Part shown: positions 2,426 to 26,658 of the stretch, piece by piece
Layout: each line of letters begins with the position of its first letter
How positions within the stretch are numbered: position 1 is the first letter of the stretch
Source of the DNA: an uncultured Candidatus Saccharibacteria bacterium
GTDB lineage: Bacteria > Patescibacteriota > Minisyncoccia > Phycocordibacterales > UBA5272
Assembly: GCA_964348515.1 (NCBI GenBank)
Contig: CAYGDA010000002.1
Coordinates: forward strand, 12,752 to 76,751
Direction: 5' to 3'
DNA length: 64,000 nt
The notes under the pieces: model-generated
What the model saw: the letters and a program-made list of their open reading frames with translations, nothing else
What the model was told of the DNA's origin: nothing
Databases searched by the model: none
Position numbers and translations under genes: made by a program

Positions 2426-4620
2426 TTATGAGAACAGATATTAAAAAATTCGCCAAGTTTACAACAATTGTTGTTTTTGTTTTGTCGTTGCCTGTGAGCG
2501 TGAGCGCGGCAATCAAAACCTCTGCCTCCGTTCCCGGGCCCACAAAAGGTCTTGTAGGTTACTGGACACTTGATGGCAAAGACACGAACTGGTCTGCCAA
2601 TACTACATCGGATAAAAGCGGTCAGGGGAATACGGGAACGCTTATATCAATGAGCACAACAACCAGTCCCAGACAGGGAATAATTGGTCAGGCGCTGAAA
2701 TTCAACGCAAGTGGCCGTGTAAATGTACCTAATTACAACATAAACTCAAATCAAATCACGGTTAGTTTTTGGTTTAACACGGATGACGCTAATACGGTGC
2801 GGCGGATAATTGAACATGATTGGAATGTTGGAGGTGTATTTACTACACACATTAACTCAGGCACGGTAAACGCATGTTTCAATGGTACGTGTAGTCCGAT
2901 GTTGACGGCTCCAATTGTTGCTAATAAATGGTATCACCTCGTACTGACTTATAGTGGAACTACAGCCCGAATGTATTTGAATGGTGTTCAGCAGGCTCCG
3001 GCGAATTATGGGACAGCTATTGCAAACTCAACGCATGATATTTTTATCGGGAGTTCGAGCTTCCCCTTCAGTGGCATGATTGACGATGTTCGCATGTATA
3101 ACCGTGCGTTGTCTGCAAGAGAAGTAATAAGTCTTTATAACCAAGGTGCCGCGGGAATTAAATCAGGAGCGAGCCAAACAAGCGCGAATGTCCCGATAAA
3201 CAGCGGTCTTGTCGGCTACTGGCCCATGGACGGGAGAGATGTGAACTGGACTGCAAACACGACGGCGGACAAAAGCGGGCAGGGAAATACAGGCACCCTC
3301 ATTAATATGAGTACAACAACTTCTCCCTCGCAGGGGGTAATCGGTCAGGCTCTTAATTTCAATGGCTCTAATTATGCAGTGACAGCCAACAATGACGCTC
3401 TTAATTTCGGCACAGGCCCGTTTTCTTTTTCCGTATGGGTTAATGCGAATAGTTTAACGGCTAATGCAGATGGGGTATTTTCAAAAGACTCATATGCCGG
3501 GGGTAATTCATATACCGGGTATCTCGTTAATGTACGCGCCGGTCCAACATGGAGTTTTGAAACGCGTAATGTTGTCTCTGGTGCCGGTCCTGATAATGTC
3601 GTGTTAAGCGCGTCTAACGCAACAACCGGGTGGACGCATATTGTAGCAGTGCGGAGCGGAAATTCTCCCGCAGTATTGCGTTTATATATTAATGGTGTTT
3701 TGTCCAACACAACAACTGAAGGCTCTGTAACTGATGTTTCCAATTCTGCAGGATTTACTATAGGAAACTTAAATTCAGGTCTCCCGTCACAATATTTTAA
3801 CGGCAAAACAGACGATGTTCGTGCTTACAACCGCGCGCTTTCCGCAAGCGAAATAAAGCAGCTTTATCAACAAGGCGCGGCTGGGCTCAAATCAGCTTCA
3901 AGCCAGACGGGTGCAAATGTTCCCATAAACAACGGGCTCGTTGGCTATTGGCCGTTTGACGGCAAAGATACAAATTGGACAACGGGTATGACGGCTGACA
4001 AAAGCGGACAAGGAAACATGGGCACGCTTGTTAATATGAGTACTACTACTTCTCCAGCGCAGGGAAAGATTGGACAGGCTTTTAGATTTGGCGGAGCAAC
4101 AAGTTATATTAATGTGGGCAATCCCGCGTCTTTGTCTTTCTCTAATCAGTCGTTTTCCGTGAGCTCCTGGGTAAGGCTAAATACTGTTCCTACAGCCGAC
4201 GGAAACGACATCGGGATTGTTGCGGACTACAGAAATACTAACGCACGATGGTTTCTTTATAAATTTAGAAATGCCGCGGGTACATTTGCTTTCGCTCTTG
4301 ATACTAACGGGGCGTGGTCGCCGGACAAGACAGCTTTCGGCTCAACTGTTCCCGTGACTAACAGGTGGTACCACGTAGTGGGTGTGTATGACCATTCTAC
4401 GGGGAATGCTTTGATTTATGTGAATGGAGTTTTTGAAAATAATTCCGGGGGGAGTCCTATTACAATCGGGGCGGTTAATGATGTGACAATCGGTAATTGG
4501 TATAGTTTGGACGGACTCGGCGGAACCAGCGGACCTAATGGAGATATTGATGATGTGCGCATTTACAACCGTGCGCTTTCGGTCACGGAAGTTAAAAAAC
4601 TTTATAATTTGGGTCGTTAG
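2422..4620 (+). CDS. Secreted LamG-domain protein with three tandem ~220-aa internal repeats
   Basis: N-terminal signal/TM (FTTIVVFVLSLPVSVSAA). Three repeats each start GLVGYW.(L/M/F)DG.D.NW..N.T.DKSGQGN.GTL..MSTTTSP.QG.IGQA and end DDVR.YNRALS..E...LY. Its ATGA overlaps the upstream stop, suggesting translational coupling. Confidence 0.7.
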   Translation: MIMRTDIKKFAKFTTIVVFVLSLPVSVSAAIKTSASVPGPTKGLVGYWTLDGKDTNWSANTTSDKSGQGNTGTLISMSTTTSPRQGIIGQALKFNASGRVNVPNYNINSNQITVSFWFNTDDANTVRRIIEHDWNVGGVFTTHINSGTVNACFNGTCSPMLTAPIVANKWYHLVLTYSGTTARMYLNGVQQAPANYGTAIANSTHDIFIGSSSFPFSGMIDDVRMYNRALSAREVISLYNQGAAGIKSGASQTSANVPINSGLVGYWPMDGRDVNWTANTTADKSGQGNTGTLINMSTTTSPSQGVIGQALNFNGSNYAVTANNDALNFGTGPFSFSVWVNANSLTANADGVFSKDSYAGGNSYTGYLVNVRAGPTWSFETRNVVSGAGPDNVVLSASNATTGWTHIVAVRSGNSPAVLRLYINGVLSNTTTEGSVTDVSNSAGFTIGNLNSGLPSQYFNGKTDDVRAYNRALSASEIKQLYQQGAAGLKSASSQTGANVPINNGLVGYWPFDGKDTNWTTGMTADKSGQGNMGTLVNMSTTTSPAQGKIGQAFRFGGATSYINVGNPASLSFSNQSFSVSSWVRLNTVPTADGNDIGIVADYRNTNARWFLYKFRNAAGTFAFALDTNGAWSPDKTAFGSTVPVTNRWYHVVGVYDHSTGNALIYVNGVFENNSGGSPITIGAVNDVTIGNWYSLDGLGGTSGPNGDIDDVRIYNRALSVTEVKKLYNLGR

Positions 4621-7036: not shown

Positions 7037-7042
7037 TTTGCC

Positions 7043-7392
7043 GTTGTGTTGGGCAGCCGCTCCGCGGGATTTTTATCTCACGGGGAGGAAAGTCCGAACA
7101 CTCGCCTTGGGTTTTTCTCAAGGCAGCAGGGTAGCGGGTAACGCCCGTCGTTCCGCGCCACTTTTGGTTTTTAAATCTTGAATGTCAAAAGTGGCGCGGA
7201 ATAGAGCTGAGAACAGAAACGACCCGGTTTAGTCCGGCTGAAACGGCAAAATGCTTACCTGTGTGCAAGGCCGTGCCCCTCCCGCAAGGGAGAGGAGTGC
7301 CGCTCGAGCCTGGGAGTAATTTCAGGCCCAGATGAATGGCTGCCGTTCCGCCTCAGGGCGGGATACAGAATTCGGCTTATAAACACAACACA
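7043..7392 (+). ncRNA. rnpB: RNase P RNA, bacterial type A
   Basis: Universally conserved elements are present: P4 5' strand GGAGGAAAGTCCGAACAC, GGGTAACGCC...GCGCCAC (P10/11-J11/12), ACAGAAACGACCC, and AGATGAATGGCTGCCG...ACAGAATTCGGCTTAT (P4 3' strand). P1 pairing is gttgtgtt (7043-50) with aacacaac (7381-88). Confidence 0.85.
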
Positions 7393-7396
7393 TCAA

Positions 7397-9943: not shown

Positions 9944-11611
9944 ATGAAAGCCTTCTTGAGTAAGGAATTTTCCAGCACGCATGAAGCGGCGGTTCTGCTA
10001 GCTGTTTTTTCCTTGTTTTCCCAGATATTGGCGCTTGTCCGCGATAAACTCCTCGCTTATATGTTCGGGGCCGGGGCTGTGTTGGATACCTACTATGCCG
10101 CGTTTCGGGTGCCTGATCTCATATACGCGCTTCTGGCTTCAGCTTTTGCGTCCGTGGTTATAGTGCCCACCCTTATGGGGATTGTTGAGGAAAAAGGAGA
10201 GGAATCAATGCGGCGTTTTTCAGGGGCGATATTCAAGGCTTTCTTTGTTCTTATGTGCGCGGTTTCTGTAATATTGTTTTTCCTTATGCCGTACATCGTG
10301 CCGTTTTCCGCTCCGGGTTTTACTGCGGCCGCTCAATCGGACGTGGTTATGCTTTCCAGGATTTTACTTCTTTCTCCGCTGCTCCTTGGTCTTTCTAACT
10401 TGTTTGGCAGCGTTGCCCAAATGCGCCGGCATTTTTGGTTTGTAGCCATGGCGCCTGTTTTTTACAACATAGGGATAATCGCAGGTATAGTTTTGCTTTA
10501 CCCGGTTTTGGGATTGTCCGGTCTTGCCTGGGGAGTCGCTTTGGGGGCTTTGCTTCATTTGTTTACGCAAGGGACTGAAGCGCGCCGCTCGCCCGCTGCT
10601 CCGGATTTTTCAGCCCCGCTGTCGTTTAAGGAATTGCGGGGGCTTTTCAAAATATCTCTCCCGCGCATGTTCACGCTTTCTTTGAGCCAGATTCTGCTTT
10701 TGTGTTTTACGGCCATAGCTTCTACGCTCTCGCTTGGTTCCGTGGCGATATTTACGTTCGCTTTTAATCTGCAATCAGTCCCGCTTGCTTTAATCGGAAT
10801 GAGTTACTCTACGGCCGCTTTTCCGAGCCTCTCCTCGTTTTTTGCCAAAAAAGACAAAATCGGCTTTTCTAAAGAAATGCATAGCGCTCTGGCACAGATT
10901 ATCTTTTGGTCTGTGGTGGTTACGTGTTTTTTCATAGTTTTGCGCGCTCACATAGTACGTGTAATTTTGGGAGCCGGAGCTTTTTCCTGGAACGATACCA
11001 GGCTTACGGCGGCGGCTCTCGCGGTTTTTATATTTTCAATTCTTGCCCAGAACGCCATGATGCTTTTTACCCGCGGGTATTACGCGCTTAAAGACACAAA
11101 AACTCCGCTCTTACTGCACGGCTTTTCTTCCGTAGTTTCCGTCGGTTTTGCTTTTTTGTTTTTGTATCTTTTTAAAACCGCCGAATCTTTCAGATTTTTT
11201 ATAGATGATCTTTTGCGTGTTGACGGAGTGCAGGGGACGGCGGTGCTTATGCTTCCGCTTGCGTATTCGGTCGGGGCGATTATGGGCGCGGTGCTGTTGT
11301 CTTTTGATTTAGCCCGCAAAAATTTTCTGTCGCTAAAAAATATATATAAAACTTTTCTGCAGGTGTTTGGGGCGTCGCTTTTGGGCGCCTACGCCTCGTA
11401 TTTGTTTCTTGATTCTCTTTCCGGCCCGTTCGGGCTGACTACTTTTTGGGGGGTATTTGGACAGGGGGCTGTGGCCGGAATAGGCGGCGCGGCGATTTCG
11501 GCGCTGTTCCTAATTGTTCTTGATAATGCCGAATTTAAGAGGATACTTACAGTTTTCCGCCATAAATTCTGGAGAGGGCGGGCTCTTGTGCCGGAGCAGA
11601 CGGAGCTGTAA
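9944..11611 (+). CDS. murJ: Lipid II flippase MurJ (MviN family)
   Basis: N-terminus ILALVRDKLLAYMFGAGAVLDTYYAAFRVPDLIYALLASAFASVVIVP matches the MurJ signature (R..L.A..FGAG...DA..VAFR.PN). 14-TM topology, 555 aa. Confidence 0.8.
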   Translation: MKAFLSKEFSSTHEAAVLLAVFSLFSQILALVRDKLLAYMFGAGAVLDTYYAAFRVPDLIYALLASAFASVVIVPTLMGIVEEKGEESMRRFSGAIFKAFFVLMCAVSVILFFLMPYIVPFSAPGFTAAAQSDVVMLSRILLLSPLLLGLSNLFGSVAQMRRHFWFVAMAPVFYNIGIIAGIVLLYPVLGLSGLAWGVALGALLHLFTQGTEARRSPAAPDFSAPLSFKELRGLFKISLPRMFTLSLSQILLLCFTAIASTLSLGSVAIFTFAFNLQSVPLALIGMSYSTAAFPSLSSFFAKKDKIGFSKEMHSALAQIIFWSVVVTCFFIVLRAHIVRVILGAGAFSWNDTRLTAAALAVFIFSILAQNAMMLFTRGYYALKDTKTPLLLHGFSSVVSVGFAFLFLYLFKTAESFRFFIDDLLRVDGVQGTAVLMLPLAYSVGAIMGAVLLSFDLARKNFLSLKNIYKTFLQVFGASLLGAYASYLFLDSLSGPFGLTTFWGVFGQGAVAGIGGAAISALFLIVLDNAEFKRILTVFRHKFWRGRALVPEQTEL

Positions 11612-11660
11612 AAATGATAGTTGCGGGTGTTTATGGTAGAGTGCTCGCATTGCTTTTGTT

Positions 11661-13445
11661 ATGGATCACATCAGAAATTTTTCAATAATTGCCCACATAG
11701 ATCACGGTAAGTCCACCCTGGCTGACCGGATGTTGGAGCTGACACACACTATTGATGCCCGGAAAATGCGTGCTCAGGTATTGGACTCTATGGAGCTTGA
11801 GCGCGAGCGAGGCATAACCATAAAAATGACTCCCGTGCGGATGGATTATGTGCACGAGGGGAAGAATTACATTTTGAATCTCATAGACACCCCCGGGCAT
11901 ATTGATTTCTCTTACGAGGTGTCCCGTTCTTTGCGCGCTGTTGAAGGGGCTTTGCTTTTGGTTGATGCCACCCAGGGAGTACAAGCGCAGACTCTTACAA
12001 CACTTCACATGGCTGAAGAATCCGGTCTCACGATAATTCCGGTGCTGACCAAGATAGATTCTCCGCTGGCAAGAGTTTCTGAAACACGCCGTGAAATGGC
12101 TGAACTTCTTCTGATTGATGAGAGTGAAGTGATGCTTGTTTCAGGGAAGACCGGGGAAGGAGTTCTTGAACTTTTTGAGACTGTAATCAAGCGCGTGCCT
12201 CCGCCAAAGTCTGAATATGAAAAGGAAGGCGGGGCGCGGGCTTTGGTGTTTGATTTTGAATACTCTAACCATCAGGGGATTATTCTTTATGTCCGCGTTC
12301 TGGACGGGGAGATGAATAAGCGTGATGATTGTCTGCTTTTGGAAGCCAAAGCTTCTTTTATAACCAATGAAATAGGAGTATTTTTGCCGGGGATGAAGGA
12401 AACAGAAATTTTGCACAAAGGAGAAATCGGCTACATTGTGACCGGTATAAAAGAGCCGGGGGTAGCCAGAATCGGGGATACGGTGACCCTTTCCCGGAAA
12501 CGCCTGCCGGCGTTTCCGGGCTATGCCGAGCCGAGGCCGCTGGTATTTGCCTCTATTTTTCCTGAAGGCCAGGATGATTTCAGTATTCTTAAAAACGCTC
12601 TCCTTCGTCTTAAACTTTCCGATTCATCTCTTACTTTTGAAGAAGAAAATTCAAGCGTACTGGGACGCGGGTTTAGATGCGGATTTTTGGGAATGCTCCA
12701 TTTGGAAATAATTACTGAACGCCTGCGCCGTGAATTTTCAATTGAACTTATTATTACGCTTCCTTCAATAAACTACGCTATTACGTACAAAAACGGCAAA
12801 AAAGAAACAATTTATACGCCGTCTAAGTTTCCGGATGACGGAGCGTACACTGAATGTTATGAACCGTGGATAGACGCGAAAATTATCACACCTCCTGATT
12901 ATGTAAGTCCTCTGATGCAGCTTCTTTATAATTACGAGGCGGAGGTGGGGGATTCTCATGCTTTTGGAGATACCCGTGTTTCCATTTCTTTTAAAATGCC
13001 CCTGCGCGAGCTAATGCGTAATTTCTTTGATGTTCTGAAAAGTGTTTCTTCCGGATACGCTTCGCTTTCTTATGAGCTTGCCGAAAACCGCCTTGCCCAC
13101 GTAACGCGTCTTGATATTTTGGTGGCTGAAGAAGAAGTCTTGGCTTTTTCGAAAGTTATTTCTGTGCGCCGGATAGAAGAGGAAGCCGAGGCGGCGGTGG
13201 AAAAACTTTACAAAATACTCCCGCAGGAACTTTTTACGGTAAAAATACAAGCTCGTTCCAGGGGAAGAATAATTTCCTCGCGCACGCTTAAAGCCCTGAA
13301 AAAAGACGTTACGGGGTACCTGTACGGCGGGGACATTACGCGGAAAATGAAATTGCGTGAAAAGCAGAAAAAAGGCAAAAAGAAAATGCTTGCCCGCGGG
13401 CGTGTTCATATCGGTCATGATGTATTCCTGCAGATGATGAAATAA
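11661..13445 (+). CDS. lepA: Elongation factor 4 (LepA)
   Basis: IRNFSIIAHIDHGKSTLADR, DTPGHIDF, TKID G-domain motifs plus the LepA-specific C-terminal domain. 594 aa. Confidence 0.9.
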   Translation: MDHIRNFSIIAHIDHGKSTLADRMLELTHTIDARKMRAQVLDSMELERERGITIKMTPVRMDYVHEGKNYILNLIDTPGHIDFSYEVSRSLRAVEGALLLVDATQGVQAQTLTTLHMAEESGLTIIPVLTKIDSPLARVSETRREMAELLLIDESEVMLVSGKTGEGVLELFETVIKRVPPPKSEYEKEGGARALVFDFEYSNHQGIILYVRVLDGEMNKRDDCLLLEAKASFITNEIGVFLPGMKETEILHKGEIGYIVTGIKEPGVARIGDTVTLSRKRLPAFPGYAEPRPLVFASIFPEGQDDFSILKNALLRLKLSDSSLTFEEENSSVLGRGFRCGFLGMLHLEIITERLRREFSIELIITLPSINYAITYKNGKKETIYTPSKFPDDGAYTECYEPWIDAKIITPPDYVSPLMQLLYNYEAEVGDSHAFGDTRVSISFKMPLRELMRNFFDVLKSVSSGYASLSYELAENRLAHVTRLDILVAEEEVLAFSKVISVRRIEEEAEAAVEKLYKILPQELFTVKIQARSRGRIISSRTLKALKKDVTGYLYGGDITRKMKLREKQKKGKKKMLARGRVHIGHDVFLQMMK

Positions 13446-13451
13446 AACCGG

Positions 13452-14621
13452 CTAGATATTTTTTTCCAGTTCCTTTTCGGCAATAGCGTAGTGCTTGCTC
13501 TTGTAGTACTTGGACACGACGCCGTTTATGACCCACGTGAGAAGAAGAAGGGCACCGAAATACACCAAACCTATGGAAGTGAATTTTGGCAGTGAATCTT
13601 TACTCAAATATCCGAATATTCCGGCAACTACCCCTATGGTGGTGATTAACTGCAGGGAGGATATGGTGTTTTTTGTGCTTTTAGCCTGCAGGTCTGTGAA
13701 TATATCAATGGTGGATGAAAGGTAATTTTTTGTCATACTCCAGATATGTTTGACGTATTCGTGCGTGTCCAGGAGAGTTTCGAATTTCAGCTGGAAAAGG
13801 GGCTGTAGAGAAGCGTCTATTTTTTCCACATTTGTCACTTTTTGTCTCGTCCGCACATAGGCCGGCATTTGGTCTATCCTGGCTCCGATCAGGTTTATTG
13901 TTTTTTGATACACAGACAGTTCATTACGCATGGCATCAATGTCGGTGCCTTTTATGTCCCCGCCTTCTTTGATTGCGCGGATTTTTTCCCACAGAGTGCG
14001 GTGGATTGCCAGATAGCGGTGCAGTTGGGTTTTGAATTCCCGGAAGAATATTTGGGATTCTATTATTTCCCGCGCCAAATTTTCATCTTTAAGGTTGTTG
14101 ATGAGTATCATCCCGGGGCTTCTGTATACGCCGACGTTCTCTGTTGAGAAGACTGAGTAGATTTCTTCGCTCGCTTCTTTGAATGTTTTTTCTATGTCTT
14201 CTTTATTTGCGTCTGCAGAGGTGACTATGTAGGGAAGAATTGTCTGTATATTGGCGAGTTCTTTTGGCACCGGCGCGCCCAGGCTGAAAATAAAAGACAG
14301 GCTTACCGACAGTTTTTTGTCGTAGTAACTCTTTATTTCCGCAAAATCTTCCGTAAGGGAGTGAAAATTTTTCTCCAGAACAATGAGCCCGTCTTCGTAA
14401 ATTCTGTACCGGATACCGTCGTTGGTTTCTACATCCAAATATTCAAGGGGGCCGTTTTCCCGGTGTACTTCTTTTATATTCAGACGTTCAAAGGCCGCGC
14501 TTAGGTCTTTTTTAGAGAACCCCAGGGAAGATCTTTTGTATTTGAGAAAATCCCAGATTTCCGTAAGATGCAGTGTTGTTCTCTGGAACCATCCGCCTAT
14601 GTATATTTTTTGTATATTCAT
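13452..14621 (-). CDS. Hypothetical protein with two C-terminal TM helices (CorA-like topology)
   Basis: A large soluble N-domain is followed by two closely spaced TM helices at the C-terminus (ITTIGVVAGIFGYL, IGLVYFGALLLLTWVINGVV). No GMN motif. Function unknown. Confidence 0.4.
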   Translation of the reverse strand: MNIQKIYIGGWFQRTTLHLTEIWDFLKYKRSSLGFSKKDLSAAFERLNIKEVHRENGPLEYLDVETNDGIRYRIYEDGLIVLEKNFHSLTEDFAEIKSYYDKKLSVSLSFIFSLGAPVPKELANIQTILPYIVTSADANKEDIEKTFKEASEEIYSVFSTENVGVYRSPGMILINNLKDENLAREIIESQIFFREFKTQLHRYLAIHRTLWEKIRAIKEGGDIKGTDIDAMRNELSVYQKTINLIGARIDQMPAYVRTRQKVTNVEKIDASLQPLFQLKFETLLDTHEYVKHIWSMTKNYLSSTIDIFTDLQAKSTKNTISSLQLITTIGVVAGIFGYLSKDSLPKFTSIGLVYFGALLLLTWVINGVVSKYYKSKHYAIAEKELEKNI

Positions 14622-14697
14622 TTGTAATTAAAATAATATCACACACCGGATACAGACATAGTAAAACCGGCTAAAAATGCCGGTTTTACTATGTCTG

Positions 14698-14769
14698 TGC
14701 CCTTGGCAGGAATCGAACCCACATTGACCCCTTAGGACGGGGCAGTTCTATCCATTGAACTACAAGGGC
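14698..14769 (-). tRNA. tRNA-Arg(CCU)
   Basis: The reverse complement gives GCCCTTG-TA-GTTC..GAAC-T-GCCCC-GTCCTAA-GGGGT..GTGGG-TTCGATT-CCTGC-CAAGGGC-A. The cloverleaf has anticodon CCT. No CCA is encoded. Confidence 0.8.
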
Positions 14770-14773
14770 GGTT

Positions 14774-15013
14774 TTACACTCCGAGTACCGCGGTAATCTT
14801 CTCCCGGTTGAAACCCACAAAAAACTGCCCGTCTATCTCAATTATGGGAACGCCTTGTACAGGAGAACCCATCCTTTGCGAAAGCTCGGGGATAATTTCA
14901 GGGTTTTTGGTAAGATCATGTTCTTTGTAATCAACGTTTTTATCCTTGAAAAATTGTTTGGCGGCGTTGCAATAGACACACGTAGGGGTTGAGTATATTA
15001 TGACGTTTTTCAT
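14774..15013 (-). CDS. Glutaredoxin-like protein (CxxC thiol-disulfide oxidoreductase)
   Basis: 79 aa with YSTPTCVYCNAAKQFF active-site motif and a GVP cis-Pro motif. Lies directly upstream of tRNA-Arg on the same strand. Confidence 0.75.
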   Translation of the reverse strand: MKNVIIYSTPTCVYCNAAKQFFKDKNVDYKEHDLTKNPEIIPELSQRMGSPVQGVPIIEIDGQFFVGFNREKITAVLGV

Positions 15014-15202
15014 ATTTTAGTATTTTGAAAACTGATTAAAGTCCCGGGGTTTCCTAGCCGAAAAGAGACGGCAGTGACCAGGCAATCATGCCCAAAATCA
15101 CTATGATACTAAGGAATGCCCACATGATTGTAATGACTTTTTTACTTTTCTTTTGGAACAGCATATAAGGTATGATGTAAACGAAAGAACTATAGCAGGC
15201 AT

Positions 15203-15601
15203 ATGAGAGAATTTCAAGAAAGAAACAGGAGAAAGAACTTCCTTTATTCAAAACCGGTACTTTTCGCACTTTTTGCCCTTGTCTGGGTATTTGGGAGTGC
15301 TGCCTATTCAATGTACGAAAAAGCTTCTTACACAAAGGATTTACGCGACAAAGCTAAAAATGAATACGAACGCCTTGCTGTTAAAGAGGCTTCAGTTATT
15401 GAAAAAACAAGGTTACTTTCATCGGAACGCGGGAAAGAAGAGATTTTAAGAGACCAGTACAGATTTGCAAAAGCTGACGAAGGGGTAATGGTAATAGTTG
15501 AACAGACCGCCTCTTCAAGCCCTCAAACTCAGGTAAAATTGGACTGGTTTGAGCGTATGCGCCATGCTATAGTTTCTTCCGTCGCGAGTATTTTTGAATA
15601 A
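15203..15601 (+). CDS. Septum formation initiator family protein (FtsB/DivIC-like)
   Basis: Single N-terminal TM, a coiled coil, and a C-terminal motif EILRDQYRFAKADEGVMVIVE resembling FtsB (ARE.LGYVKPGE.V). The start could be an internal Met. Confidence 0.5.
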   Translation: MREFQERNRRKNFLYSKPVLFALFALVWVFGSAAYSMYEKASYTKDLRDKAKNEYERLAVKEASVIEKTRLLSSERGKEEILRDQYRFAKADEGVMVIVEQTASSSPQTQVKLDWFERMRHAIVSSVASIFE

Positions 15602-15615
15602 ATTTTTCAATAAAA

Positions 15616-15688
15616 GCGGGATTAGTTTAGTGGTAGGATGACTGCTTCCCAAGCAGTAGGCACGAGTTCGATTCTCGTATCCCGCACC
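15616..15688 (+). tRNA. tRNA-Gly(CCC)
   Basis: GCGGGAT...ACTGC-TTCCCAA-GCAGT...ACGAG-TTCGATT-CTCGT-ATCCCGC-A-CC. Anticodon CCC, partial CCA. Confidence 0.8.
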
Positions 15689-15692
15689 GGTT

Positions 15693-16307
15693 ATGAATAA
15701 AAAAGTTTCGGTTTCAATTTTAATTATATTGGTTTGTTTTGGTATATATTGGTTTTTTGGGGACAACGTTGAAATTAAAAACTACCCTCCGCACGAAGGT
15801 AATGTAGTTGCGTTCGGTGACAGTCTGGTTTCGGGGAACGGCTCAACACCGGGCAATGATTTTGTTTCGCTTCTTTCTGTAAAAATAAACGAACCCATAA
15901 TAAATCTTGGAATTTCCGGAAATACCACAAGAGACGGTTTGGCCAGAATCGACGAGATATTTGATAAAAACCCGCGCATAGTTCTGCTTCTGCTTGGAGG
16001 TAATGATTATTTAAAAAGAATTCCCAGTGAAGAAACATTTAAAAATTTGCGGGAAATTATTTCCCGTCTGGAGGAAAAGGGAATCCTGGTGGTTTTGCTC
16101 GGCATACGCGGCGGAGTATTGGTGGATCATTTTGATGCGGATTTTGAGGATTTGGCCAGGGAAAATGGTACCGCTTACGTACCTGATGTTTTGGACGGGA
16201 TTTTTGGCAAAAATAATCTGATGTCGGATACTATTCATCCCAATGATGAAGGGTATAAAATAATAGCGGACAGGGTTTTTACCGTTGTCAGTAAGGTTTT
16301 GAGGTGA
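15693..16307 (+). CDS. SGNH/GDSL hydrolase (lysophospholipase L1 / arylesterase-like)
   Basis: Signal/TM N-terminus. Block I VVAFGDSLVSGNG, block III GGNDY and block V DTIHPNDEG match the GDSL family. Confidence 0.8.
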   Translation: MNKKVSVSILIILVCFGIYWFFGDNVEIKNYPPHEGNVVAFGDSLVSGNGSTPGNDFVSLLSVKINEPIINLGISGNTTRDGLARIDEIFDKNPRIVLLLLGGNDYLKRIPSEETFKNLREIISRLEEKGILVVLLGIRGGVLVDHFDADFEDLARENGTAYVPDVLDGIFGKNNLMSDTIHPNDEGYKIIADRVFTVVSKVLR

Positions 16308-16474
16308 TACCAGCCCTTGCTTTTTTGCCGTATAGTTGTAGTATTTTTATGTACGGGTTTCGCTCGTGCGAGGGGTTCTTTTTTCCAATGGAATAGGGAG
16401 GATTATCTTCATAAATTACACGCCTACGGGGTAACAAAGAAACTTTAATTCAAAATTACAAGTGGGGTGCTTAA

Positions 16475-16912
16475 ATGAAAAAGAAGGCAGCGATAACGTC
16501 CGCCGGGCCCGATTTACCTGAAGGGTTCATCCGTCAGCAGGCTGCGAGGTTCACTCTGGATCTCGTTCTGGTGTACGCGAATCAGGAGAACAAGTTCGAC
16601 TTCCACCGCAACCCGCCGAGGGTCCGCCAGGGATGCGAGCACTTGGCCGTGCCGGAATGCATGGCTTTGGCCAAGCTTGTGAAGCGCGTCTACTTCGACA
16701 ACCTGCACAAGGACGATTCTCCGAACAAGGTCGAAGTCGAAGTCGTCGGACGGGACGAGAACGGCTTCATGGCGTTTGTGGCGCCGGGGGAATCAATGAC
16801 CCTGCGCGCTCACGGGCGTTTTCTGAAACCGGTATGCGTCGATGTGAAGGTGACGAAAGCCGGCAACAAGAGCCGAAGCACACTGGCCATGGCAGTACAG
16901 GCGGCGGGCTGA
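16475..16912 (+). CDS. Hypothetical protein encoded by a compositionally foreign (GC-rich, GC3-rich) gene
   Basis: About 60 % GC against ~46 % in the flanks. Codons are strongly G/C-ending (TTC, GAC, AAC, AAG, GTC, CTG). SD GGGGTG precedes the ATG. No recognisable domain. Confidence 0.55.
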   Translation: MKKKAAITSAGPDLPEGFIRQQAARFTLDLVLVYANQENKFDFHRNPPRVRQGCEHLAVPECMALAKLVKRVYFDNLHKDDSPNKVEVEVVGRDENGFMAFVAPGESMTLRAHGRFLKPVCVDVKVTKAGNKSRSTLAMAVQAAG

Positions 16913-16997
16913 AAGACATCCTCCAACACAACAACAAGAGAAGCCCTGGGTAACACCCCAGGGCTTTCGTAATTATGAGTTAGCGGGTTACAATTGA

Positions 16998-17309
16998 GTG
17001 ATGGAACCAGACACACAAGCACAGCTTAAGGAGATACTCGCGCTTACCCGCGAGAACAATGAATATCTGCGCGTTATTAACAGCCGTGAAAGAACCAGGA
17101 CGATACTGAGGGTTTTTTATTGGACCCTGATTATAGGGGCCACTGTTGGAAGCTATTATTTAATACAGCCGTTAATTAACACATATCTCGGCAGTACATC
17201 GTCTCTTTTGAACAGTCTGCAAAGTATACAGAAAGCGGGAACAAGTTTGCCTAATTCAGAGGATATACAGAAGGCCATACAAAATTTCAAGATTCCGGGG
17301 ACTCAATAG
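16998..17309 (+). CDS. Small coiled-coil plus single-TM membrane protein
   Basis: GTG/ATG start. N-terminal amphipathic helix, Arg-rich juxtamembrane segment (RERTRTILRVFYWTLIIGATVG) and one TM. Weakly similar to 26798-27076. Confidence 0.4.
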   Translation: MMEPDTQAQLKEILALTRENNEYLRVINSRERTRTILRVFYWTLIIGATVGSYYLIQPLINTYLGSTSSLLNSLQSIQKAGTSLPNSEDIQKAIQNFKIPGTQ

Positions 17310-17370: not shown

Positions 17371-17443
17371 GCTGGGATAGCTCAGTTGGTAGAGCATTTG
17401 CCTGAAGAGCAAAGGGTCGCCAGTTCGAGCCTGGCTCCCAGCA
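17371..17443 (+). tRNA. tRNA-Phe(GAA)
   Basis: GCTGGGA-TA-GCTC-AGTTGGTA-GAGC-A-TTTGC-CTGAAGA-GCAAA-GGGTC-GCCAG-TTCGAGC-CTGGC-TCCCAGC-A. Confidence 0.9.
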
Positions 17444-17535
17444 CAAAAACGAAGGTTTTGTGAGGCGGAGGCGCGACTGCGCCGAGCCGGGGTCGCGGAA
17501 TTTTTCAGCAGAAAAATATCTGTGACCAGAAAAAC

Positions 17536-17562
17536 AAAAAACGCCCGTCTGGGCGTTTTTTG
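17536..17562. terminator. Bidirectional intrinsic terminator between tRNA-Phe and hsp20
   Basis: A-tract, then acgccc-gtct-gggcgt hairpin, then TTTTTT. It abuts the hsp20 stop on the opposite strand. Confidence 0.6.
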
Positions 17563-18051
17563 TTATATGGATTTTACGCGCAGTTTTGCCTGGCGCTCTT
17601 TGTCTATTTTTGGCAGGCGTATGATGAGCAGTCCGTGTTTTTCTACAGCCTCGGATTCTTCAATTTCTATTTCGTGGGGGAGGAGGATTGTGCGTGAGAA
17701 AGGCCCCCAATAGAGTTCTTTGTAGAAATAATCTTCGCTGGGAATTTGGCTGTTGGCCTCCCGCTTTCCTTTGATTGTGACCATGTCACGCGTAATAGAT
17801 AAGTGGAGGTCTTCCGGCTTGACCCCGGCAATCATGGCTTCGATGATAATTTCTTTGTCCGTCTGATATACATCAACTGAAAGTTCTCCTTCTTCTTCGG
17901 AAGATTCGTCTTCTACCCAGGCATCATTGCGGGTATTCTTTTTTACCGGAGTGTATTCTTCTTTCTGCTTGACCGGTATCTCGCGCTCCTTTTCTTCGTC
18001 GAGGCTGATGCTGCCGGCAAGTTTTTCAAAAAATGAACGCTTTTCTTTCAT
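17563..18051 (-). CDS. Hsp20/alpha-crystallin family small heat-shock protein
   Basis: Alpha-crystallin domain (VDVYQTDKEIIIEAMIAGVKPEDLHLSI, G.F.R...LP...I) and a Glu-rich N-terminal extension. Confidence 0.8.
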   Translation of the reverse strand: MKEKRSFFEKLAGSISLDEEKEREIPVKQKEEYTPVKKNTRNDAWVEDESSEEEGELSVDVYQTDKEIIIEAMIAGVKPEDLHLSITRDMVTIKGKREANSQIPSEDYFYKELYWGPFSRTILLPHEIEIEESEAVEKHGLLIIRLPKIDKERQAKLRVKSI

Positions 18052-23864: not shown

Positions 23865-25163
23865 ATGTCAGATTTAACGAAAGACGCTAGTCTGAACACT
23901 TCTTATTGCCAAGAGTTAGAAGCTCAGAGTGTTGTAAATCGCGGCCTTTGGTTTGCTAAATTTATTAGAAATAATAAAAAAATAATTATTGACGTATTAA
24001 CTACTTATGAAATATATAGAGTTGCTAATGATGAAATATCCAGAACTCTTGATTTATTAGAAAATTTAAACGAAAACAAAGAATACTTTGAAAAGAAAAT
24101 TGGAACAACCGTTTCTTTTTTACCCATAAATCAACCATTATATGCTTTGGCTTGTTTCGGTATCGTTCCGGCTTTAATGTCGAAACAGGTGTATGTGCGT
24201 CCACCAGCGATAGCGTGGGGCATGATTAATGAACTGGTTAAGGTTATATCTTTAAATACATTTTTCCCAAATCTGTTTATATCTAACCAAACGCGGAATG
24301 AATTTATAAATCAACACAAAATGAGAAAGGGGATTAATAGAGCCGATGTTGTAATTTTTACCGGTAAGCCAGAAAATGCTTATATTACCCAAAAAGCTTT
24401 TGGGGAATCGGTTTTATTTATAGGAAATGGGGCAAGCCATAATCCCGTCGTTATCTCAAGAGGTGCTGATATAGATGCTTCTGTGGAGGCAGTATTAGAG
24501 GTCCAACTATATAATCAAGGAGCTGATTGTGCTGCCCCAAATTCAATACTCGTAGAATCTAGCGTTTATAATAATTTTATTAAGAGGTTAAGAATAGCCG
24601 TAAAGGGAGTAAAAGTAGGTGGCTATAAAGACAAGGAGACTATTGTAGGTCCATTTCTTGAAAAGAAACATTTAAAAGAAGTGGAAGCATTACTAATGGA
24701 ATACGATAGGTTTATAGACCACTCTACTCGGCCTGTTTTAAGACGTGAAGAAAATATTATTGCTCCGATTATTATAAATAAACCGTTAGTTGAAGGTGGA
24801 AATTATGTTGAATGGTATGCCCCGGTTTTTATAGTTCAAAAATATGAAAAAGATTCAGATCTGCATCTTTATTTTGAAAATCCTGTTTATGAAAAACAAG
24901 CTGGTTACATAACTCTTTTTGGGAAAAGTGATTATGTCGAAGGGCTAATAGGAAAAAAGTTTTATTCTGGCAAAATTCTTCACCCAGCGGATACTATACT
25001 TAGAAATACACACCTTCATGCGTTTGGTATGGAACGTGGAGTAAAACCATATGGTGGTTACGGAGAAAACAGTTCATTTGTTAGCTGGGGTGGTATTACT
25101 TTACCTAAACCAACGCTGCCACAACGAGAAATATACGATTATTTGGTCAAAAATAAATTTTAA
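23865..25163 (+). CDS. Aldehyde-dehydrogenase-superfamily reductase-like protein (LuxC/ProA/CoA-acylating ALDH-like); AT-rich cassette gene 1
   Basis: The ALDH Rossmann motif (VVIFTGK) and the catalytic-Cys motif (YNQGADCAAPNSILV, compare F.N.GQ.C.A..R) are present. The general-base Glu motif ELGG is replaced by FIGNG. 432 aa, about 33 % GC. Confidence 0.5.
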   Translation: MSDLTKDASLNTSYCQELEAQSVVNRGLWFAKFIRNNKKIIIDVLTTYEIYRVANDEISRTLDLLENLNENKEYFEKKIGTTVSFLPINQPLYALACFGIVPALMSKQVYVRPPAIAWGMINELVKVISLNTFFPNLFISNQTRNEFINQHKMRKGINRADVVIFTGKPENAYITQKAFGESVLFIGNGASHNPVVISRGADIDASVEAVLEVQLYNQGADCAAPNSILVESSVYNNFIKRLRIAVKGVKVGGYKDKETIVGPFLEKKHLKEVEALLMEYDRFIDHSTRPVLRREENIIAPIIINKPLVEGGNYVEWYAPVFIVQKYEKDSDLHLYFENPVYEKQAGYITLFGKSDYVEGLIGKKFYSGKILHPADTILRNTHLHAFGMERGVKPYGGYGENSSFVSWGGITLPKPTLPQREIYDYLVKNKF

Positions 25164-25810
25164 TGAAACTAATCTCTAAAATAGAAAATGCCCGCTATTC
25201 TGCAACCATATCTCATAATAATTATTTAGGAGAATGTATTTCTGTTGCATATGAATTAACAGGAGAAGAGGTGAAGGAAGGAGGATTTACGGATAAAACT
25301 GTGTTGATTTTATTAAAAATTAAAAATGAAGAATTTCCTTTTGAAAATAATAAACGAGAGACTTTATTTGGGAAAGGGACTTTTGTGGGGAATAAAGTAC
25401 CATTAAGAATAATGAGTTCGTGTATGACCGGACTATTGGGTGATAAAATGTGTGAATGTCATGATGATATGGTTAAGTATTTAAAGACGCTTGGGGCTCG
25501 AGACGAGGGTATATTTGTTTATTTGCCCCAAGAAGGACAAGGTAGGGGTCTTAAGGTTAAACTTAGAGACCATAGGTTACAGTATGGTTTTGATGATATG
25601 GGAAAAAGAATCGTCCCAAAGACTTTTAGAGAGGCTACGTCGTATTTAATACCCAATAGTAAATTTGATATAAGAAAGTTCGGGTTTCTGAAAGACTGCT
25701 TCAGTCTTCTTGGCCTTGATATGTTTGAGTTTGGTTGGCTTGGGGGCGAAAACAGGATTAAACAACTTAAAAGTGAAACCGGTTTAAGGGTAAGTAATTT
25801 AAAATTTTAA
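25163..25810 (+). CDS. GTP cyclohydrolase II (RibA)-like protein; AT-rich cassette gene 2
   Basis: RIMSSCMTGLLGDKMCECH matches the zinc site (RVHSECLTGD...CDCG), and YLPQEGQGRGL matches YHRQEGRNIGL. Overlaps gene 1 at TAATG. Confidence 0.65.
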   Translation: MKLISKIENARYSATISHNNYLGECISVAYELTGEEVKEGGFTDKTVLILLKIKNEEFPFENNKRETLFGKGTFVGNKVPLRIMSSCMTGLLGDKMCECHDDMVKYLKTLGARDEGIFVYLPQEGQGRGLKVKLRDHRLQYGFDDMGKRIVPKTFREATSYLIPNSKFDIRKFGFLKDCFSLLGLDMFEFGWLGGENRIKQLKSETGLRVSNLKF

Positions 25811-26658
25811 TGAGTCAAATTCCTTTTGAAGGTTACGACTTCGAAAAAATAAAGAAAGAATTCAATGCCGTTCTTTCAGAGGTTTTTGATAAGGATATAG
25901 AATATGCTTTTTTTAGTGGAAGTGTGGCTTATGGCGGAGGAATAGTAAAAAAAAGTGATATTGATATAGCTATCGTACTAAAAGAAAAAGAGTATTCGTT
26001 GTCTAAATTTATTGATTTTGGAAAACACTATATCGAGATAAACAAAAAAAATAATTTCGTTCCCGACGTTACCTTCCCTGGAGAATTTCTTACGCCACTT
26101 TTGGTTTCAGATGCTATTTCTGGCAGGGGTTTTTCAGTAAAAGATAATATTTTATATTTACCTATTGCATCCACTGAATATTATTTGGCTGACCCAGAAC
26201 GTTGGTTCAGGGCTTGGTTAAGTATGTTGACTTTTAGTGTTTTTGTAACTGGTTCTGTTTCAAAATTTGAAGAGGCAAAAAGAAATGCATGGAGGACAGT
26301 TTTACTATTTTTGTTTTCCACACCTCAGTTCCGTGTAGTTAGCTTAAGTGACTTAACGGATATGCTTTCTAATGGGGATAACAAATGGCTAGGTTTTGGG
26401 GTCACAAAGAATTATTGTCTTTTTCGTGATTATGAAACAAAGATAATTAAAAATACTTTAGTCGGATTAATCCAAGAGGGTTTTATAGAGGAATCAGGTG
26501 GTTTTTATAGACCGGTCCGTAAGGCCATTAATATGTGGAATTACTCGGTTGTTCAGAAGATAAAAGATAAAAGCATAAGAAAGGCTAATTTTTTAATAGA
26601 CCTTGATAATACTAATAAAATATCTAATTCATTTAATGTTGGAAGAATTGGTACTTAA
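25810..26658 (+). CDS. Pol-beta-superfamily nucleotidyltransferase with C-terminal helical domain (ANT/LinB/AbiEii-like size); AT-rich cassette gene 3
   Basis: Motif FFSGSVAYGGGIVKKSDIDIAIVL (hG[GS]-x10-DhD). 282 aa. Overlaps gene 2 at TAATG. Confidence 0.6.
   Translation: MSQIPFEGYDFEKIKKEFNAVLSEVFDKDIEYAFFSGSVAYGGGIVKKSDIDIAIVLKEKEYSLSKFIDFGKHYIEINKKNNFVPDVTFPGEFLTPLLVSDAISGRGFSVKDNILYLPIASTEYYLADPERWFRAWLSMLTFSVFVTGSVSKFEEAKRNAWRTVLLFLFSTPQFRVVSLSDLTDMLSNGDNKWLGFGVTKNYCLFRDYETKIIKNTLVGLIQEGFIEESGGFYRPVRKAINMWNYSVVQKIKDKSIRKANFLIDLDNTNKISNSFNVGRIGT

Follow-up and report, generated by a model that had tools for sequence, protein, structure and literature searches.

The 64,000-nucleotide stretch of contig CAYGDA010000002.1 (assembly GCA_964348515.1) that was analysed here, in the following called the window, stems from an uncultured Candidatus Saccharibacteria bacterium, which groups with Paceibacteria-type Patescibacteria (records labelled Kaiserbacteria, Nomurabacteria, Campbellbacteria and similar). 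The open reading frame (ORF) at positions 16475-16912 of the window is, judged from its sequence, a genuine, lineage-restricted protein-coding gene, which has the composition of a roughly 60% GC genome and will be called the ORFan. It lies in a variable slot upstream of the genes for a conserved small membrane protein (p103) and tRNA-Phe. At the same place the nearest relative carries an ORF of almost the same composition, which shares no significant similarity with the ORFan. A foreign origin of the ORFan is plausible. The simplest account, which is held with moderate confidence, is that after the split of the two lineages the slot was repeatedly filled, or its content replaced, from a common donor pool of genes with about 60% GC.

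The initial annotation had described the ORF as GC-rich and GC-skewed at the third codon position, and this was confirmed. The GC content is 0.589, and the values for the three codon positions are 0.62 (GC1), 0.40 (GC2) and 0.747 (GC3). In contrast, the 62 other selected ORFs of the window have a mean GC content of 0.45 and a mean GC3 of 0.470 (standard deviation 0.070, maximum 0.684), corresponding to z = 4.0 for the GC3 of the ORFan, and no 438-bp stretch elsewhere in the window exceeds a GC content of 0.55. The third-position spectrum of the ORFan (A.13, C.35, G.40, T.12) differs from the background (.23,.23,.26,.28), and G-ending codons predominate in its four-fold boxes. It had also been claimed that the codons end almost exclusively in G or C and that every neighbouring gene uses A/T-rich codons. 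The former was overstated, as the actual fraction is 75%, and the neighbours turned out not to be strongly A/T-biased, with GC3 values of 0.35-0.53. A GC profile with a sliding window of 60 bp revealed that the abrupt onset of the GC-rich tract coincides with the start codon and that its end coincides with a downstream hairpin. The leader in front of the ORF resembles the remainder of the genome in being AT-rich.

The ORFan exhibits a pronounced codon-position periodicity (chi-square p = 2e-9), with the order GC3 > GC1 > GC2, which is typical of genes from genomes of about 60% GC. As a control the RNase P RNA was used, which is encoded in the same window and is also GC-rich, and no periodicity was found (p = 0.83). 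The RNase P RNA gene (7041-7395) exemplifies that GC-rich islands in this DNA can be RNAs, and it was considered that the segment might encode a structured non-coding RNA or an antisense gene, or result from a chimeric assembly, rather than represent a protein gene on the + strand. In the nearest relative, the contig L093 that is described below, the public gene call in the corresponding GC-rich segment is indeed antisense (2544-3014 on the - strand, 153 amino acids, P0126), and the mRNA of the ORF on the sense strand folds more stably than shuffled sequences (z -3.8). However, the RNA fold of the ORFan itself has no excess structure (z -1.44, compared with -6.4 for the RNase P RNA), no Rfam match was obtained within 16475-16966 at E <= 1, the GC-rich segment of the window contains no long antisense ORF, and the periodicity fits the sense frame only. 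The same protein in the same context was present on the ENA contigs ERZ27247817, -820, -828, -830 and -837 and on Logan ERR3094302. The identity of these six contigs with the window amounts to 99.8-100%, and no differences lie inside the ORF. The junctions on both sides of the ORFan are identical in at least six independent assemblies (ENA/MEGAHIT and Logan) made with two assemblers, showing that it is not an assembly chimera. Taken together, an RNA gene, an antisense gene or a chimera is extremely improbable.

The predicted product is basic (pI 9.4) and mildly hydrophilic and contains three cysteines, a lysine-rich N-terminus and the motif LPEGF at residues 14-18. No obvious transmembrane segment or signal peptide was found in its sequence, and it is predicted to be soluble. 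The earlier statement that it has no recognisable domain was verified, as Pfam, PHROGs, PADLOC and NCBIfam yielded no family match and no PDB sequence was retrieved. A RelE/ParE-like helix-helix-beta topology was dropped, because its sole basis was an unreliable structural model. It may be guessed, without support from homology, that the protein has an accessory, conflict-type role, e.g., in immunity, exclusion or anti-defence, which would fit its rapid turnover.

To characterize the genomic context, GTDB species representatives were compared as loci anchored at the ValRS gene, with a best ValRS identity of 69%. The gene order ValRS-PrsW-HSP20-(tRNA-Phe)-p103-Grx-p132-LepA is widely conserved in the relatives, and p103 homologues adjoin HSP20 in about 45 related loci. 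The slot was surveyed from p103 to the next upstream anchor, which is Grx in all but three loci. Thirteen relatives have an empty slot, with 100-513 bp and without any ORF of at least 60 amino acids, while in the remaining relatives it is filled with 0.6-6.8 kb of unrelated genes, including those for a GGDEF protein, an HD hydrolase, an M10 peptidase, an acyltransferase, a two-component system and AT-rich helix-turn-helix (HTH) proteins. None of the GTDB relatives with a p103 anchor has the ORFan at this position, and none has the GDSL-type esterase/lipase gene that precedes it in the window. The comparison proposed in the initial annotation, namely whether related genomes are contiguous from the GDSL gene to tRNA-Phe, was thus inapplicable. 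The GDSL homologues of relatives (<=64% identity) sit in unrelated neighbourhoods. These comparisons of gene order argue that the slot serves this family as a general hot spot of accessory genes, and that the GDSL gene and the ORFan are lineage-specific occupants.

GC-rich genes were found in the slots of two further relatives, designated L030 and L045. In L030 a 274-amino-acid protein with a weak DUF218 match is encoded at 13870-14694 (GC 0.56, 0.62 in the 5' part). In L045 a response regulator (GC3 0.68) and a 247-amino-acid unknown protein (GC 0.57) are encoded at 11213-12679, within a locus of 0.45 GC. Mutually similar AT-rich proteins are encoded directly upstream of p103 in three distant relatives, L029 (14683-15384), L045 (10480-11103) and L081 (14810-15415). 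Their genes have a GC content of 0.25-0.30, and the proteins comprise about 200-233 amino acids and have motifs such as LYWGEGNK in common. An N-terminal HTH match is weak in the L081 protein and marginal in the L029 protein, and the L045 protein has no Pfam match. They may represent a selfish element that uses the same slot.

No close relatives were retrieved with GDSL or p103 as query. A JGI scan with PrsW led to the closest relative (L092/L093), with a PrsW identity of 73% compared with about 40% for the GTDB relatives. L093 is a 5.2-kb ENA contig from the same organism as the JGI match and was retrieved through its p103 homologue. The amino acid identities with the window are 90% for HSP20, 75% for Grx, 52% for p132 and 51% for p103. 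The tRNA-Phe genes are 99% identical and the promoter region is also conserved; the GDSL gene is not present in L093. At the position of the ORFan, L093 has an ORF that almost equals it in composition. Its GC content is 0.596 (GC1 0.58, GC2 0.46, GC3 0.743) in a contig of 0.44 GC, its third-position spectrum is A.16, C.36, G.39, T.10, and its periodicity is significant (p = 2.5e-5). The encoded protein also has a lysine-rich start, followed by LPDGF at residues 14-18. Among 6,126 other ORFs of related loci, LP[ED]GF was not encountered. Both ORFs are followed by a stem-loop of the form AAGCCC...GGGCTT.

Despite these parallels, no significant DNA similarity was detected between the two ORFs (z = 0.05), the spacers between ORF and p103 (-0.3) and the leaders (1.7). 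Clear similarity was obtained, by contrast, for the coding sequence of p103 (5.8) and for the promoter region of tRNA-Phe (6.0). Because the values for the ORFs and the spacers are near zero and that of p103 is 5.8, the homology of the two genomes breaks exactly at the start codon of p103. The time that has passed since the split is reflected by the fourfold sites in conserved residues of the flanking genes, of which 34% (64/186) are identical between the window and L093, while full saturation would correspond to 25%. As the synonymous sites are nearly saturated, an ancestral gene under the resident mutational bias should have shifted for the most part to the genomic GC3 of about 0.47. Both ORFs have retained values of about 0.75 in spite of near-saturation, and a passive retention of the high GC content from a shared ancestor is therefore unlikely.

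The pair of ORFs also bears on the question whether the tract is merely non-functional foreign or GC-rich DNA, in which the open frame would be fortuitous or the remnant of a decaying gene. The lack of homologues and of a confident fold would be in accord with this, and so would the leader region 16308-16474, in which no convincing promoter was found (no promoter-like site scoring 9/12 or better). After shuffling, a full-length stop-free frame in any of the six frames occurred in 4% of the segments for the window ORF and in 9% for the L093 ORF. In both genomes, however, the strong periodicity is confined to the open frame, and both frames are open on the same strand. Furthermore, the gene is unchanged in all sampled populations, and the low-confidence secondary structure of an AlphaFold (AF2) model suggests protein-like amphipathic strand and helix patterns. 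That the ORFan is non-functional is thus considered quite unlikely.

A further possibility is that the common ancestor of L093 and the window lineage already had a single fast-evolving, GC-rich gene upstream of p103, and that the GC content of this gene has been actively maintained, for example through selection acting on the mRNA or the codons, or through biased gene conversion. The two ORFs agree in position, strand, size, the lysine-rich N-terminus and the location of LP[ED]GF, and by eye both proteins appear to have two helices followed by beta-strands in colinear order, and both genes have the AAGCCC...GGGCTT hairpin. As p103 and p132 have already diverged to about 50% identity, a somewhat faster gene could have become unrecognisable, and the nearly equal GC3 values (0.747 and 0.743) resemble an equilibrium. 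However, a GC3 of 0.75 at near-saturated synonymous sites, against an equilibrium of about 0.47, would demand an unusual force that acts on one gene only. In addition, the ORFs lack significant similarity at both the protein and the DNA level, the form of the hairpin is generic, and G-ending codons in four-fold boxes are expected from the mutational bias of a donor and not from translational selection. An old resident gene is therefore regarded as unlikely.

The favoured explanation is instead that the ORFan would be a compositionally foreign single gene that was installed in the variable slot upstream of p103 and tRNA-Phe. Its arrival, or its last replacement, in this lineage would have taken place after the split from L093, and the slot would have been supplied repeatedly from one fast-evolving gene pool of roughly 60% GC. 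In this respect the lateral acquisition proposed in the initial annotation held in part: the composition is foreign, the gene is lineage-restricted and its GC3 is un-ameliorated, but a donor was not found. An orthologue of similar GC content in relatives had been named as the finding that would speak against a recent acquisition. The ORF of L093 has the same position, GC and GC3, and its orthology to the ORFan could not be demonstrated. The word "recent" therefore applies only with reference to the separation from L093, and only on condition that the composition has not been actively maintained.

Several observations weigh against a repeated installation from a common pool. L093 is the only close relative that was compared, and the two-fold occurrence of the same slot, orientation, size and N-terminal motif would be a coincidence that calls for a mechanism. 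A BLASTP comparison of the two ORFs gave a best E of 0.55, covering LPEGF/LPDGF only, and Smith-Waterman and global scores did not exceed z = 1.6 relative to shuffled sequences. No integrase, transposase or reverse transcriptase is encoded within about 10 kb of the ORFan. Searches for flanking direct repeats or att-like sites yielded short chance-level repeats only, and the search for a tRNA-fragment duplication yielded only a 12-mer with one mismatch, which is also at chance level. Searches of 5.8e9 protein clusters (k-mer/HMMER) and an exhaustive phmmer search of 1.84e9 representatives returned only the 145-amino-acid protein itself, no relevant match was obtained by tblastn against phage and plasmid records, and no match was obtained when IMG/VR and JGI metagenome contigs were scanned with peptide patterns. 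The single-sequence AlphaFold model is unreliable (predicted local distance difference test, pLDDT, of 43.6), and a Foldseek search of the PDB with this model was meaningless (best E 0.54, TM-score <= 0.32). Last, the six contigs that carry the ORFan have no SNPs (single-nucleotide polymorphisms) within the ORF, and the population-genetic signal is nil.

These searches also concern the donor. The initial annotation had proposed a recent acquisition from a high-GC donor, which for an episymbiont could be the host cell. The foreign and un-ameliorated composition would agree with such an event, and Patescibacteria take up DNA and undergo frequent horizontal gene transfer (PMC12455944). However, no homologue was found in the JGI contigs or in the collection of about 15 billion predicted proteins, to which ENA and Logan assemblies of the ORFan-bearing samples belong, and this argues against a sequenced cellular host as the donor. 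The sense ORF of L093, which carries the periodicity, is also missing from this collection, exemplifying that negative results with protein databases can miss mis-called genes, as the L093 counterpart was called on the wrong strand. Furthermore, Patescibacteria receive the majority of their individual transfers from other members of the group (PMC12455944), and the counterpart in L093 indicates that the phenomenon is not unique to this strain. A recent transfer from the host is thus disfavoured and decidedly improbable. Under the favoured explanation the GC-rich pool would more likely reside in unsampled mobile or viral DNA than in the core genome of a cellular host.

A rather improbable variant would be that the slot is a dedicated hypervariable locus with one GC-rich cassette, of which the architecture (size, strand, the lysine-rich N-terminus with LP[ED]GF and the terminal hairpin) and the composition are kept across species while the remaining sequence turns over. 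The cause could be a site-directed exchange of cassettes with no integrase encoded in the vicinity, or else a process specific to this gene, which would speed up its divergence and at the same time keep its GC3 at about 0.75 despite a genomic GC content of 45%.

Horizontal gene transfer and genomic islands are common in Patescibacteria (PMC12455944), and the ORFan can therefore be assigned to an already known kind; only the compositional twin in the sister lineage is unusual. The closest match is a horizontally acquired ORFan or genomic islet, as the gene is short, lineage-restricted, without homologues and of atypical composition, and lies between conserved genes in a variable region. Classical ORFans are usually AT-richer than their genome, and the ORFan literature is said to include Daubin and Ochman (2004). 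In contrast, the ORFan described here is 14 points GC-richer, has neither a donor nor a mobility signature, and has a compositional twin in L093. Morons of phages were reportedly described by Juhala et al. in 2000 as promoter-ORF-terminator units of atypical composition between conserved genes. The single ORF with its own downstream stem-loop, its deviant GC content and its location between conserved genes are reminiscent of these. Unlike a moron, however, it is not part of a prophage, its neighbours are housekeeping genes (LepA, ValRS, SecA, HSP20), it has no PHROG match, and no promoter was identified.

An integron cassette also comprises a single promoter-poor ORF and an inverted repeat, and different ORFs are found at one site in relatives. 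An attC site is an imperfect R''-L''/L'-R' palindrome with a GTTRRRY core. In contrast, the hairpin behind the ORFan has a perfect 10-bp stem and a 6-nt loop, without attC-like architecture and without GTTRRRY at the 3' side. In addition, there is only one unit instead of an array, and no IntI or attI was found within 10 kb. Like a tRNA-associated island, the ORFan has an atypical composition and is near tRNA-Phe, a classic island target, but it lies 5' of the tRNA gene with p103 in between, and neither an integrase nor a direct repeat of the tRNA 3'-end is present. With GC-rich structured RNA genes such as that of the RNase P RNA it shares a GC maximum that extends locally over a few hundred bases, but differs from them by codon periodicity, an open frame, the absence of excess folding energy and the lack of an Rfam match.

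The features of the locus are collected in Table 1. The ORFan appears to form a stand-alone unit, in which the ORF is preceded by an AT-rich leader and followed by a strong stem-loop. The small hairpin in the leader, predicted from folding and a terminator scan, probably terminates the GDSL gene. The neighbouring genes encode LepA, Grx, GDSL, HSP20, PrsW, ValRS and SecA, and no Pfam mobility domain was found within about 10 kb.

Table 1. Features around the GC-rich ORFan in the window and its counterpart in the nearest relative
Feature	Position	Strand	Remarks
GDSL-type esterase/lipase gene	15693..16307	+	Pfam PF13472, 2.3e-23; GC 0.40, native-like
AT-rich intergenic leader	16308..16474	+	167 bp; fine-scale GC 0.32-0.48
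Small hairpin and T-run in leader	~16351-16380	+	Fold and terminator scan
GC-rich ORFan coding sequence	16475..16912	+	145 amino acids; composition and codon periodicity
Stem-loop AAGCCCTGGG-TAACAC-CCCAGGGCTT	16941..16966	+	29 nt past the ORFan stop; terminator-like
p103, conserved small membrane protein	16998..17309	+	Start probably ATG at 17001
tRNA-Phe (GAA)	17371..17444	+	ARAGORN and Rfam; downstream of p103
Counterpart ORF in L093	L093 2622-3029	+	135 amino acids; directly upstream of the p103 homologue, same strand

The hairpin behind the ORFan, which had been noted before, is real and strong, with 10 perfect pairs, a G-U pair and a predicted free energy of -20.9 kcal/mol (z -4.4); its coordinates and stem length had to be corrected from 16944-16967 and 9 bp. 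It has a weak T-tail on the + strand (UUUCGUAAUU). The claim that it is unlike the other terminators was not upheld, as AAGCCC...GGGCTT is a generic terminator form, which was found at terminator positions in several related loci, and the terminator at 17533-17564 also has a GC core. The possibility that it is a repeated element was rejected, because it occurs only once in the window and the motif is generic at terminator positions of relatives. A paralogy of p103 with the 98-amino-acid protein encoded after an AT-rich cassette had been suggested, but BLASTP retrieved nothing at E <= 100, and the two proteins have only a loose architecture of an N-terminal helix plus a transmembrane segment in common. 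A sub-threshold NCBIfam match of p103 to the P110/LppT adhesin N-terminal domain (E 1.4e-4; 21.7 bits versus a cutoff of 80) is probably compositional.

The surroundings of the slot also differ between the window and L093. The block tRNA-Arg(CCT)/Grx/p132/tRNA-Gly(CCC), which adjoins the slot, is inverted (window 14696-15687, L093 1374-2327, 67% DNA identity), and the inversion is bounded by the two tRNA genes. In L093, tRNA-Phe is located inside a perfect 18-nt inverted repeat at 3456-3605 (CCCATTACTTATGCCGGC / GCCGGCATAAGTAATGGG), a degenerate copy of the 5' half of this tRNA gene lies ahead of it, and an extra gene for 164 amino acids lies between tRNA-Phe and HSP20. At the corresponding place of the window (17445-17564) a very GC-rich stretch of about 45 nt (17455-17500) is followed by a strong bidirectional terminator at 17533-17564.

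Two further compositional features of the window were noted. The gene for the bacterial RNase P RNA (class A; + strand, 95.2 bits, E 9e-30, fold z -6.4) explains the GC-rich "gap" that separates the DUF192 gene from the TPR protein gene; its score is just below the Rfam gathering score of 100, and it was missed by a default gathering-threshold scan. The opposite compositional outlier is an AT-rich block of three genes at 23865-26658 (+), directly after SecA, which encodes an aldehyde dehydrogenase, GTP cyclohydrolase II and a 282-amino-acid protein with a weak Pol-beta nucleotidyltransferase match. It has a GC content of 0.33-0.35 and a GC3 of 0.24-0.28 and is also present in the relative L002.

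The antisense call in L093 illustrates concretely how artificial "ORFans" can arise from GC-rich inserts in AT-richer genomes, and this mis-call shows that claims of "no homologue" need to be accompanied by six-frame checks. If the pattern of compositional twins recurs in more genomes, the slot upstream of p103 would be a tractable locus for studying gene turnover or the maintenance of composition in ultra-small symbionts.

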